A DNA stretch of 64,000 bases from a candidate division WWE3 bacterium (GTDB lineage: Bacteria; Patescibacteriota; 4484-211; GCA-002791395): the NCBI GenBank assembly GCA_013335095.1, contig JAAXWF010000003.1, positions 154,048 to 218,047 of the forward strand. The letters run 5' to 3'. The position numbers are program-made. Every line of letters starts with the position of its first letter. The stretch's first letter is position 1. Positions 54,001 through 64,000 of the stretch are shown here, piece by piece.

Positions 54001-57000
54001 ACATCGGCGATGATTGCGGCGGGAAAGTATAGGAGGGGCAGTAGCCCGGCCCCTATGGTCATTCCACCAATAAGCCAGCGGAAAACCCTTGTCCGGTATC
54101 CGATGACGACAAGCGTCAACTGGATAACCGACGCCACCACCACCATATGCTCGAAAGCATGGATGGGTGACCACGTTGGGTCTGGAAGGGCGATTTGCTT
54201 GAATGCCACAAAGACCATGATGGTCAAACATGCAATCAGCAGTTGCGCATCAAACTCTTCCTCGGCCTGCGTTCCAATGTTAGAACGTTCCACTTGCATA
54301 GCGCCGTCTCCTTAACTCATACTGCCAGAATGGCCCATATAGTATACGATTAGACCGTATAGTTTTCAATATGGCATATCTGATATTTACCATTTTTTGA
54401 TGTCGAGTAATGTATGGTAGGATTAAAAATAGAGTTGATGAGAAAGAATATCCAAAAAATTCTTTGGGCAAATTGGAAAGATATTGGTCACCCTCAAGCG
54501 GGCGGGGCTGAGTTTGTGAATCACGAAATTGCTCGCCGGTTGGTGGCTGATGGGTACTTTGTAACGTTATTAACCTCGTTATATGATGGTGCGGCTGAGG
54601 CCGATCAAATAGACGGCGTCCAAGTTGTCAGAATCGGTAAAAGTAGATACTTACATACCTTCCAGGCGTTATACTACTATCTTCGCTATTTGCGTGGTCA
54701 ATATGATCTTATTGTCGAAAGCGTTAACACCGCTCCTTATATGATTGGCCGTTTTTTAAAAGGTGAAAAACTACTCCTATTTTATCATCAGCTTGCCCAC
54801 GAGGTCTGGTTTCATCAAACAACATTTCCATTAAGTTCATTAGGATATTACGTGTTAGAACCCGTAGCAACAGCACTAAATGTTGCCACTCCCTCTCAAA
54901 TCGTGACGATATCGGAAAGCACTAAAAAGGATCTTGTACATCATGGCTTTTCCGAAAAAAGAATTCATATAATTTCTGAGGCTATTGGAATGGAGCCAAT
55001 TGCAAATTTAAGTCGGGTGATAAAACCAACGAAGCGAATTATTTTGGCCCTCGGTGCGATTAGATCAATGAAACGTACTGATGAAATTATTAAAGCATTT
55101 GAGATTGCTAAACGTAAATATGATGATTTAGAACTAATTTTAGCTGGTCGTGCCGAGGGCAACTATGGCCAATCTGTACTCGAATATATAGGAAATTCAC
55201 CCTATTCGAGCGATATTACTTATTTAGGGCATATTACTGATTATCAAAAGCAAGATTTACTCAAACGGGCTTATATTCTGTGTGGGGCATCGATTAAAGA
55301 GGGCTGGGGATTAACTGTAACAGAAGCAAATTCTCAGGGAACTCCAGCCATTGTTTATAACGTGGACGGTTTAAGAGATAGTGTTAAACACGATGAAACC
55401 GGCATTATTTGTATGGAGAATTCTCCAGAATCTATGGCTGCACAGATACTTTTGTTGTTAGATGATCGGGTTAAATATAAGAAACTACAGAAAAATGCTT
55501 GGGAAATGAGCAAATCAATTACTCCATCAAAGAGTTATGCTGATTTTCGTAGCCTTTTGGAATCTATGTAAAACTTGAAAAGCTTATAGTGTTTTGGTAT
55601 TATGTTCTCATGTTTCCGTGGTGCTGCGGCACCTACTTTGGAGGACAATTATGTCCAAGTCTCCTGTGGAGAAGTTTGAGGTCGTGGGGGTTGCTCACGA
55701 AGAGTTCGGCGTAGTGAGTGAGGACGGGATGTGCGTGGTGTACGTCTCGAACCTCGTGATGACCAGAAACCTGTTCGTTGAGGTTCTGGGTGCCACAGTT
55801 GTATTGAGCTATGAAATGGCCGATGAGAAAGCCGGTGAACGTCGGTACAAGATTCTCCAGCTTGGCGAGTCGCTCATCTGCCTCGTGCGCGATGAGCGCA
55901 TGCTGGAGTTCGGACCGGTATCGAGCCTGGTCGAAGCTGTGAATGTGGTCGCAACGAACATTGCGGCTATCGTGACCGCTTTAAAGGCCTATTGGCCAGA
56001 GTTGTTCGAAGTCCATTACGGCGATCATGGCCAAATTGGGCTGTTGCCCAACAAGCTGATCGCCAATGGGATCATTCTCTACGAGCACTACGGCGAGTAG
56101 GGAAAGTAGACGGCGGCGGGGAAGAAAAACTTCCCCGCTTTTTTATTATTCCAACACCTTGTAAGACTTATAGTAATTTGGTATCCTATACCCACGGTAA
56201 TCTTCACCAGAGCATCATGCTAGGAGGACGTATTATGTCCACAGTCGTCGTGGATCGGAATGGTCGGCCGGTAACCGGTGAATTGACAGTGGTGACCGTC
56301 CAGGATCTGGATATCGCTTTGGCCGTGTTCACCGAAGTTTTCGATGCACAACCGTTTATCTGTGTGCGTAAACCTGAAAGTGGTGTTAAGCCACATGCAA
56401 TCGTCACAATCAAAGGGCACTGGGTGTGCTTGGAGATTGACGCTACGAAGATGGATCTCGTATTCACGAATCCTCAGGTACCAACGCTTTTTCTGGAGGT
56501 CGATAATCCCCGGGAGACGGCGCGGACGCTTGCACATCGGTTCTGGGGTAAGACCGAGTCTGAACCCACCGCCGCTGGCCTGTTAATGCTTCTGATTGGA
56601 ATTATGGCAAACGCCATTGTTCTGATGGAACGTAAGACGGAGCCTACGGTGATCTAAGTCGGCACAACTTGGGTATCGGACGCGGGAGGGGTAAAATCTC
56701 TCCCGCTCTAGCTCAATACGGCCATAATGAATTTACGTTCTACTTAGTGTGGAGGGCTATCATGTCCTTGGTGTTATCACCCATCGGAACCGCCGCTTCG
56801 AGTGATCTTACACCTCTTTTTGTAGAGGATATGGCATTGGCCGAGGTCTTATTCTGTAAATACCTTGGTGCAAAGGTATTGTTTCGGAGTAGTGCTCCTG
56901 AGGATCCATCAGTAAAGCCACATTGTGTCGTTGTTATCGGAACACATTGGATTGTGCTTGAACTGGACCCCAGTCGAGCGAAAAAAGATAACCTCCAGTT

Positions 57001-63000: not shown

Positions 63001-64000
63001 CGGTGCAGATCCCTGGTCTGCCGATTACAATCTGGTACGTGAACGTCCAGGATGAACCCATCTACCGTTCTAGCGACAACCTGCTATTTGACCTGACTAT
63101 TACCAATGGTCTTGTCAAAGTCGGTGATGATTCACCGCAGCTTGTACCGCCCGGGCGTCGCTTAATTATTCCCAACGGAGCGATGGTCTTCATTGACCCG
63201 GTTAAGTTTGAGGTAACACCGTTCGGGAAAGGACAGTTTAGCTTGACCCCCGTCGAAGATTCGGAGTAAACCTTTGGGGTGAGTGCGCAAAGCGCTCACC
63301 CTGTTTATACTATTATCAAAAAATATACATATCCATGATATAATATGACCCATAGTCGATCGCGCCTATGGGGGTGCGAGGATTGGCTATTTAGCTACAA
63401 GGGAGGCATTCTATGCCAGACCAAATCCCAGGTACGGCTCTCGAATTCGAGACTCAGAAGGTCGTGGTCATCATGGCCCCGAACGTGCCCGCTGTGTATC
63501 TCTGGCTTGAAGAAGTCAGGGCTCCGGTTGCTCATCCTGATCGAATCATGGTCACTCGAACGTTCGCTCGAGCGATCATCCGGTATGGGAATACCGGTCA
63601 CATCGACTACGCTGGCCAGGGTCAAGTCCAGTATAACGGACGAGACTCGGTCGTTAGCATCATGGAGCGAAAGTTTCGAGTCCAGGTACAGCCCAATGGC
63701 GACGTGGCGATGAAGTCGCTCGATATCGAGGGCTAATACGGCTGGGGGACGGGTGCGCTCGTCCCCCTTTTTTTTATTTTTCATTTGTTACAATACAATT
63801 TAATCAATCCGTGTTGAGCTGGTTTCAATGAGGAGGCCAATATGCCGGTGGTTCAATGGTTCATGGATGGCTCTGTGCCGTTTGGGCAAAAGTTTGTCGC
63901 AGGTGAGATGATCTTAATCGTCATCGTATCACTCGGGCTGGCGGTACTGTGGGTTGTTCAAGAAGTTCAATCCAAGAAGCCGATTGAAGAGATCATTGCA

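Follow-up and report, generated by a model that had tools for sequence, protein, structure and literature searches.

The stretch of DNA considered here, called the window, comprises 64,000 nucleotides of a candidate division WWE3 bacterium (GenBank assembly GCA_013335095.1, contig JAAXWF010000003.1, positions 154,048 to 218,047, forward strand), a member of the candidate phyla radiation (CPR). CPR genomes are tiny, and little is known about how new genes are acquired and expressed in these bacteria. At its downstream end, the window carries an array of small plus-strand genes, called cassettes below, which are GC-rich relative to the host genes and each of which has a Shine-Dalgarno (SD) site and an upstream -10-like box of its own. 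Between 55,651 and 64,000, 13 complete genes of this kind and one cut by the window edge were called, with products of 99-274 amino acids (aa), in agreement with a first-pass annotation, which had listed 14 plus-strand open reading frames (ORFs) of this size from 55.6 kb to the edge. Exact look-ups of proteins from the window led to NTV31391-NTV31405 at NCBI (locus tags HGA91_05455-05525), and the same DNA is present in the Logan assembly of run SRR11449211. The units, with their coding sequences (CDS), are as follows.

g1, 55572-56148, plus strand: CDS 55651-56100, 149 aa, without family match, GC 54%, G+C at third codon positions (GC3) 0.70; SD GGAGG 55640-55644; putative -35/-10 at 55575-55603 (TTGAAA, 17 nt, TGgTATTAT); hairpin 56115-56139 and T-run
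g2, 56149-56710, plus strand: CDS 56235-56657, 140 aa, predicted fold like that of the vicinal oxygen chelate (VOC) superfamily; putative promoter 56158-56187, homologous to that of g1; SD 56223-56227; hairpin 56682-56706, no clear U-run
g3, 56711-57205, plus strand: CDS 56762-57154, 130 aa, paralog of g2; -10 CATAAT 56723-56728; SD 56751-56755; hairpin 57166-57194
g4, 57206-57815, plus strand: CDS 57270-57767, 165 aa; -10 TAGAAT 57223-57228; SD 57260-57264; hairpin 57775-57797
g5, 57806-58735, plus strand: CDS 57866-58690, 274 aa; -10 TATAAT 57812-57817; SD 57853-57857; hairpin 58697-58721
g6, 58736-59385, plus strand: CDS 58834-59337 with GTG start, 167 aa; -10 TATAAT 58754-58759; SD 58824-58828; hairpin 59344-59373
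g7, 59386-60015, plus strand: CDS 59488-59961, 157 aa, predicted alpha/beta sandwich; -10 TGcTATAAT 59441-59446; SD 59477-59481; weak hairpin 3' of the gene
g8, 60016-60495, plus strand: CDS 60082-60447, 121 aa; SD 60067-60071; hairpin 60453-60476 and T-run
g9, 60496-61100, plus strand: CDS 60562-61056, 164 aa, paralog of g7; -10 TGaTAGTAT 60518-60523; SD 60552-60556; hairpin 61058-61098
g10, 61101-61610, plus strand: CDS 61198-61548, 116 aa; SD AAGGAG 61185-61190; hairpin 61578-61605
g11, 61628-62182, minus strand: host-like membrane-protein gene, 184 aa, not a cassette
g12, 62183-62912, plus strand: CDS 62306-62860, 184 aa; -10 TATAAT 62246-62251; SD 62295-62299; hairpin 62879-62898
g13, 62913-63320, plus strand: CDS 62973 (or 62970)-63269, 98 (or 99) aa; -10 TGaTATAAT 62924-62929; SD 62963-62967; hairpin 63275-63303
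g14, 63321-63790, plus strand: CDS 63413-63736, 107 aa; -10 TGaTATAAT 63339-63344; SD 63402-63406; hairpin 63744-63767 and T8
g15, 63785-64000, plus strand, cut by the window edge: CDS from 63842; -10 TGtTACAAT 63789-63794; SD 63832-63836

An exact GGAGG precedes 13 of the 14 array genes, the remaining one, g10, having AAGGAG. The near-consensus SD that had been described before each start is indeed there, at a measured gap of 5-10 nt. A TATAAT-like -10 box of consensus or near-consensus sequence, in several cases of the extended type TGnTATAAT, is located 28-93 nt upstream of each start codon. After the stop codon, a stable hairpin is predicted within the first ~50 nt for 12 of the 13 complete genes (-14 to -26.6 kcal/mol; z -2.9 to -7.7 relative to shuffles, the latter value being that of g6). 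Hence, the claim that a hairpin with a T-run follows each stop codon holds for most of the array but needs adjustment at g7, the only complete gene with a weak hairpin, and at g2 and g10, whose hairpins have no good U-run. A scan of 55-64 kb scored 18 terminator-like sites versus 8.2 ± 3.5 in shuffles, and the intergenic hairpins, with T-runs after them, are unrelated to one another in sequence. With an SD, a -10 box and a terminator hairpin per gene, the cassettes are organized as self-contained, non-operonic units, as had been proposed.

The only gene of the opposite orientation within the array, g11, is AT-rich (GC 33.5%, GC3 0.23), lacks an SD and has no family match, which fits its earlier description as an embedded host-like gene. 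A single GC-rich hairpin at 61578-61605 (GGGGGGAGC...GCTCCCCC; -26.6 kcal/mol) lies tail-to-tail between the convergent g10 and g11, and it could terminate both. For g13, the start is probably at 62973, given the SD spacing. The full product of g15 is a protein of 109 aa with two predicted membrane helices.

Two gene populations in the window

The 66 genes of the window split into 24 GC-rich genes and 42 host genes, and the host genes of this WWE3 bacterium have about 40% GC. The GC content ranges from 46 to 63% in the former versus 34 to 45% in the latter, and GC3 from 0.41 to 0.82 versus 0.22 to 0.38; the CDS of the array cassettes have 46-55% GC and a GC3 of 0.41-0.70. Three 60-nt samples, on which the earlier claim of GC-richer coding parts had been based, were reproduced exactly, with 56.7% at 56235-56294, 41.7% at 9825-9884 and 20.0% at 10668-10727. 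Synonymous codon usage differs between cassettes and host genes (chi2 849 with 41 degrees of freedom, versus 46.5 in a host-versus-host control), and the tetranucleotide-usage correlation is 0.69 between cassettes and host versus 0.86 within host genes. The cassettes are, thus, clearly distinguishable from their flanks in both composition and codon usage, and their amino-acid composition is shifted as well; their composition is foreign to the genome in which they reside. The expression signals divide the genes in the same manner: a perfect GGAGG is found in 21 of the 24 GC-rich genes versus one of the 42 host genes, and a hairpin with a T-run 3' of the stop codon in 18 versus four.

The first-pass annotation had described the array from 55.6 kb to the window edge. 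The array is present, but it is not a single bounded locus. Its architecture recurs elsewhere in the window, and the GC-rich genes form six blocks, at 15.1-16.2, 44.9-46.9, 48.1-50.3, 52.7-54.3, 55.6-61.6 and 62.3-64+ kb. These are found on both strands, and host genes for a flippase, family 2 and family 4 glycosyltransferases (GT2 and GT4) and a secreted protein lie between them. The blocks upstream of the array are the following.

15094-16149, minus strand: isolated GC-rich gene, 351 aa with signal peptide; GGAGG SD, TATAAT box and terminator
44900-46900, minus strand: block of three GC-rich cassettes, CDS 44922-45362, 45486-46019 and 46209-46817, the last two encoding membrane proteins
48075-50350, both strands: block of four, CDS 48087-48686 (minus), 48816-49388 (minus), 49517-49924 (plus) and 50034-50297 (plus)
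52683-54299, minus strand: three small GC-rich membrane-protein genes, 52683-53150, 53333-53710 and 53847-54299, between the host GT2 and GT4 genes

In the block of four, all genes have a GGAGG SD, and a terminator hairpin was scored for three of them. No significant family match was obtained for the genes of the block at 44900-46900. The isolated gene at 15094-16149 is 30 kb away from the other cassettes; its secreted product contains three internal repeats of ~100 aa (C...WPAGxCxN...WGxG), and neither a family match nor relatives were found for it.

Host genes appear to be read in another way. Most of them lack an SD. In 14 of the 42, the distance between the end of a -10-like hexamer and the ATG is 3-15 nt, and in six of these it is exactly 6 nt, whereas the -10 box of the cassettes is never closer than 28 nt to the start. 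First genes with a TAnnnT box exactly 6 nt before the ATG and without an SD are found, for example, at 26086, 26700, 29364 (minus strand), 43813, 25200 and 21567. Such spacing corresponds to the geometry of leaderless mRNAs, and the pattern suggests that the WWE3 host makes mostly leaderless mRNAs. Moderate SD sites are present in internal genes of host operons, so the ribosome is presumably able to use an SD. Searches of the literature on leaderless mRNAs or SD usage in CPR bacteria, and on the sequencing runs concerned, yielded nothing relevant.

Probable turnover of the cassette repertoire

Several cassettes of the array are paralogs. The products of g2 and g3 share 34% identity (blastp, E 3e-10) and those of g7 and g9 32% (E 6e-8). 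Weaker similarities exist between the N-terminal ~100 aa of g12 and the products of g13 and g14, with which they align collinearly, and between g4 and g6 (E 0.006). Moreover, the promoters of g1 and g2 are homologous over 27 nt (z 9.2). The vicinity of the paralogs and the homology of these two promoters suggest that entire cassettes were duplicated locally. The earlier suggestion that the cassettes had been inserted one by one can, thus, be retained as only a part of the story. Weaker regulatory similarities extend across blocks: the ribosome-binding site (RBS) region of g1 resembles that of 48087-48686, and the g2 promoter that of 46209-46817. Together with the paralogs, these similarities would fit duplication and movement of whole cassettes.

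A related array was found on a Logan contig of 1,941 bp from another run, SRR21121619 (locus L003), which carries P0013, a relative of g7 and g9 discussed below. The first gene on the contig is g6-like and is represented by its final 33 codons; it is followed by a gene for 161 aa on the minus strand, a gene for 126 aa on the plus strand and a g7-like gene with only 32% identity to g7. Each of these three genes comes with a TATAAT box, an SD of the GGAGG type and a hairpin. In the 31 C-terminal codons, g6 and its counterpart have 27 residues in common, and 11 synonymous codon differences stand against four non-synonymous ones, which indicates purifying selection on g6. The hairpin after the g6-like gene has another sequence but an equivalent form. 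The two genes between the g6-like and the g7-like gene are unrelated cassettes; in the window, g6 directly adjoins g7. The arrays of the two populations, thus, have an order in common, and the differences between them consist of entire cassettes, one of which is inverted. At 1757-1941 of this contig, the RBS region of a cut-off gene after the g7-like gene (CAGGTAGCAAGGAGGAGGCCT) resembles the RBS region of g6 in the window (CAGGTTGCCAACGAGGAGGCCT), which hints that a g6-family paralog follows there and that the order of the cassettes has been shuffled.

Over 52,306-64,000, the sequences of the window and of the Logan contigs are identical. The Logan assembly of the same run as the window breaks twice, i.e., at 63066-63075 (L002, within g13) and at about 64161 (L001, 10 nt before the stop codon of g15), and the 70-kb contig upstream of these breaks is unbroken. 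The breaks in the array may reflect strain-level variation in cassette content.

Orphan proteins and their predicted folds

The cassette proteins are orphans. Comparison with Pfam, NCBIfam, PHROGs and PADLOC gave no meaningful match. In an exact look-up, 25 of 26 cassette proteins were found in the collection, g13 being absent under either start, and, barring alternative start calls, each of these 25 and each of two proteins of the related array is alone in its 90%-identity cluster. Two families were searched deepest, and they have one outside relative in total. A profile of g2 and g3 retrieved only g2 and g3 from 5.8 billion clusters, in a word-indexed search that needs shared exact words of five residues, whereas an exhaustive HMMER search of 1.84 billion representatives with a profile of g7 and g9 found one relative outside the window, P0013 (E 3e-14). 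A second match of the latter profile, the 393-aa P0014, is a tandem-repeat protein in which the motif FNGDGRDD recurs, and it was discarded as due to chance. Scans of JGI metagenomes for related arrays found none. A search for syntenic regions in relatives, anchored on peptide patterns from the host GT2 gene, had no match, as these patterns were not conserved. The cassettes are not conserved core genes. In the databases searched, 24 of the 66 genes of the window, about one third, are orphans.

Structure prediction gave more information. A profile of g1-g6 had one match in the PDB, E. coli glyoxalase I (E 0.0045). The AlphaFold (AF2) model of g2 is of moderate confidence, with a mean predicted local distance difference test score (pLDDT) of 62. 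Its secondary structure has the order beta-alpha-beta-beta-beta, and then beta-alpha-beta-beta. Nearly all of its top 50 Foldseek matches belong to the VOC superfamily (E about 1e-3, TM score about 0.4), among them FosX, FosB and FosA, bleomycin-resistance-like proteins, the antibiotic binders TioX, ZbmA and TnmS1, and the integron-cassette proteins VCH_CASS1 and HFX_CASS4. The paired order of strands and helices and the best matches to FosX, FosB and FosA make a VOC/glyoxalase-like fold a reasonable prediction for g2 and, by paralogy, for g3. The products differ from typical members of the superfamily in that g1-g6 give no PF00903-type match in Pfam at E<0.1. Metal ligands may not be conserved among them: in an alignment read by eye, g4 and g5 have a histidine at the beta1 position, and g1, g2, g3 and g6 do not. 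Judging from a shared N-terminal strand-helix motif, g1 and g4-g6 are probably VOC-like too, and g5, with its 274 aa, possibly consists of two VOC-like halves. PDB sequence searches with g1, g4, g5 and g6 returned only noise. A genuine host glyoxalase/bleomycin-resistance gene (PF00903) is located at 14639-15043; it is AT-rich and not detectably related to the cassettes, and hhalign gave no significant link between it and g4 or g6. The g7 model (pLDDT 79) comprises a sheet of five strands together with a long helix at the N-terminus and another helix at the C-terminus, i.e., g7 and g9 are modeled as alpha/beta sandwiches; a Foldseek search with it gave no match. The products of g15 and of several genes in the other blocks are small membrane proteins. 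Altogether, the cassettes would encode small soluble proteins of a binding type and small membrane proteins.

AT-rich host genes with a likeness to resistance genes are found at 22540-29305. They encode an FmrO 16S rRNA methyltransferase, a VanY carboxypeptidase, a protein with metallo-beta-lactamase fold and a serine beta-lactamase/penicillin-binding-protein-like protein. On account of the predicted folds and of the surrounding genes for FmrO, VanY, the two beta-lactamase-fold proteins and the glyoxalase, the cassettes may represent a protective, immunity-like repertoire that binds or neutralizes toxic small molecules or proteins.

Origin of the cassettes

How these genes came to be where they are can be explained in several ways. 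We give an even chance to the explanation that single-gene transcription units of a moron-like kind were acquired horizontally and form at least six blocks, of which the array is the largest, in an accessory region of the WWE3 chromosome that also contains envelope-glycan and resistance genes. Each unit would then consist of a generic, host-independent -10 or extended -10 promoter, a leader of 30-90 nt with a perfect GGAGG, a gene and an intrinsic terminator. Bringing its own signals, it could be expressed, and remain insulated, at any landing site. The grammar of the host genes is a different one, with AT-rich codons, little SD use at first genes and often a distance of 6 nt between the -10 box and the ATG. 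The cassettes would be maintained under selection. Their repertoire would change as entire cassettes are duplicated together with their promoters and then diverge, and as others are gained or lost. Homologous or illegitimate recombination is a more probable route of integration than a dedicated site-specific system.

The comparison with morons of phages, reportedly described by Juhala, Hendrix and colleagues, had already been made in the first-pass annotation. A moron comprises a promoter, a gene and a factor-independent terminator, deviates in G+C and is inserted between genes that are adjacent elsewhere (PMC3714127). The cassettes resemble it in their putative sigma-70-like promoter, single gene, factor-independent terminator, deviant G+C and insulation, and in the related array two of them are located between g6-like and g7-like genes that adjoin each other in the window. 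They differ in that they are not in a phage or prophage, with no phage genes detected by Pfam or PHROG, and in that there are dozens of them, arranged in tandem and spread over several blocks, on the chromosome of a CPR host whose initiation is apparently leaderless. Thus, the comparison is apt for the unit and its insertion between neighbors, but the phage context is missing.

Several observations weigh against horizontal acquisition of moron-like units. No donor, vector or integration mechanism was identified. In tblastn searches, the 13 array proteins had no match in 50,697 GenBank phage records or in 72,556 PLSDB plasmids, the proteins of the other blocks and of the related array had none in the same phage records, and scans of IMG/VR for related arrays found none. 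According to Pfam searches of the 66 ORFs treated as genes, the 64-kb window contains no recombinase, transposase or phage gene, which for recombinases had been noted before. Morons are defined within phage genomes, whereas the context here is chromosomal, and the spread in GC3 from 0.41 to 0.82 makes a single donor unlikely. The array promoters are putative, being matches to a consensus, and a generic scan for pairs of -35 and -10 hexamers gave no enrichment (12 found versus 14.4 expected); the earlier statement that each gene has its own promoter is, therefore, sustained by the position and the quality of the -10 boxes but not by counts. On the protein side, the statistics of the VOC assignment are weak, and hhalign of g4 and g6 with g2 and g3 gave no link beyond one helix. 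Consequently, the VOC-like patterns noticed at first have gained the backing of the model for g2 and of paralogy for g3, but the label is a motif-level one for g1 and g4-g6. The fold matched by the g7 model, finally, is a very common sandwich.

An acquisition system driven by a recombinase would be another explanation, and known systems of this kind provide a yardstick. Integrons have an IntI-type tyrosine recombinase, attI and the promoter Pc at their 5' end and an attC for each cassette, and their cassettes are generally promoterless. The recombinase-associated acquired interbacterial defense (rAID-1) arrays of Bacteroidales were reportedly published by Ross et al. in 2019. Their criteria comprise a 5' XerD-like recombinase (over 44% identity to BF9343_RS08045), two or more co-directional genes of skewed GC, a GC content of 41% or lower, repetitive intergenic sequences and homology to immunity genes (bioRxiv 10.1101/471110). 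The array shares with rAID-1 its long series of co-directional small genes, the skewed G+C, the tandem paralog families and a content that varies between strains, and its small binding-type folds are compatible with immunity proteins. With integrons, it has in common that the genes are small and mostly orphans and that VOC-fold proteins are known as cassette products. As the array continues past 64 kb with g15, there would also be room for a recombinase and a capture site beyond the window edge, with the cassettes being immunity or defense genes. Nevertheless, we hold this to be quite unlikely. The recombinase is expected at the 5' end, where the neighbor of g1 is a GT4 glycosyltransferase gene; the window contains no IntI, attI or attC, and in 44-64 kb no repeat family or attC-like element was found, only pairwise promoter and RBS similarities. 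Unlike integron cassettes, each gene has its own promoter, and the short GC-rich hairpins are terminators, not attC. In addition, the GC-rich cassettes are distributed over six separate blocks and both strands, and similarity to known immunity or defense genes is lacking in Pfam, NCBIfam and PADLOC. Of the hallmarks of rAID-1, only the co-directional genes of skewed GC (13 complete and one partial) are seen, with the skew upward, i.e., the G+C of the cassettes is above and not below that of the host; each gene has a terminator, and the host belongs to another phylum. Thus, the initially suggested likeness to recombinase-associated immunity or defense arrays found no support in the features that could be compared. 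Orphan immunity arrays of polymorphic toxins differ as well, as the window ORFs include no adjacent toxin gene or C-terminal fragment and none of them has a toxin domain.

Alternatively, the blocks could be remnants of one integrated element, a prophage or integrative element of about 52% GC, later split by rearrangement or by insertion of host genes. A single composition class and signal grammar in all blocks, the short regulatory similarities between them and the small orphan genes, which are typical of phage accessory regions, would agree with this. However, an integrase, capsid, terminase, replication or conjugation gene is absent from the window, and the searches of PHROGs, phage records and IMG/VR mentioned above were negative. 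Phage genes are normally packed in operons rather than terminated singly, the host genes in between, for flippase, GT2 and GT4, make up one coherent locus for glycans, and the wide GC3 spread argues against one recent block; the idea is, thus, an unlikely one. We regard it as similarly improbable that the cassettes are native, vertically inherited, lineage-specific WWE3 genes, whose G+C, SD and terminators reflect selection for high, insulated expression. The failure to find a donor is in line with that view; so are the paralog families, as signs of local evolution over a long residence, the related array in a second population and the moderate SD sites within host operons, given which the ribosome can presumably read an SD. 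Yet, the shift is strongest at synonymous sites (GC3 0.41-0.82 versus about 0.3; chi2 849), which is hard to ascribe to expression in a genome of 40% GC, and it extends to amino-acid composition; furthermore, no other genome or metagenome searched contains a member of the cassettes, and cassette content differs between the two known arrays. An artefact, either from chimeric joining of two organisms in the assembly or from ORFs arising by chance in GC-rich non-coding DNA, is largely refuted and very improbable. Although the source is a metagenome-assembled genome and the Logan assembly breaks in the array at 63,075 and 64,161, the NCBI and Logan assemblies are identical throughout 52.3-64.0 kb, several host/cassette junctions included, and host genes and blocks alternate on a scale of 0.5-2 kb; that the genes are real is indicated by the conserved paralogs, a foldable model and the purifying selection on g6.

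Acquisition of moron-like units could be taken further. In a bolder and rather doubtful extension, CPR bacteria would have an acquired gene repertoire of an as yet undescribed type, with dozens of portable one-gene cassettes, each with an extended -10 promoter, a perfect SD and an intrinsic terminator, from a pool unrelated to known phages, plasmids and cellular genomes. Lacking integron-type sites, these would enter accessory loci and be expressed via an SD-led route apart from the largely leaderless one of the host and would supply fast-turnover binders of toxins or antibiotics in an episymbiotic life. They would be a functional analog of rAID and integron arrays with another capture mechanism. 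The site itself is reminiscent of flexible glycan-locus islands in its position among flippase, GT2 and GT4 genes, its strain-specific content and the assembly breaks, but such islands usually swap glycosyltransferase operons, whereas individually signaled orphan genes of foreign composition are found here. The window, thus, holds two gene populations that differ in composition and in translation-initiation signals. If the pattern holds genome-wide and in relatives, the combination of GGAGG, leader and terminator, on a leaderless background, would be a simple signature of recent acquisitions in CPR genomes, and it would illustrate by what means foreign genes can still be expressed when the host initiates translation in another way. 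The cassette genes encode small proteins, predicted to be VOC-like or alpha/beta sandwiches, that are tractable for tests of a protective function.

Elsewhere in the window, an Rfam scan detected a tRNA-His as its only match. A host gene at 2681-9823 encodes a protein of 2,380 aa with Kelch repeats and purple-acid-phosphatase-N and FN3 domains, which is probably a giant surface protein, and it is followed by an ATP-binding cassette (ABC)/FtsX pair resembling MacB.

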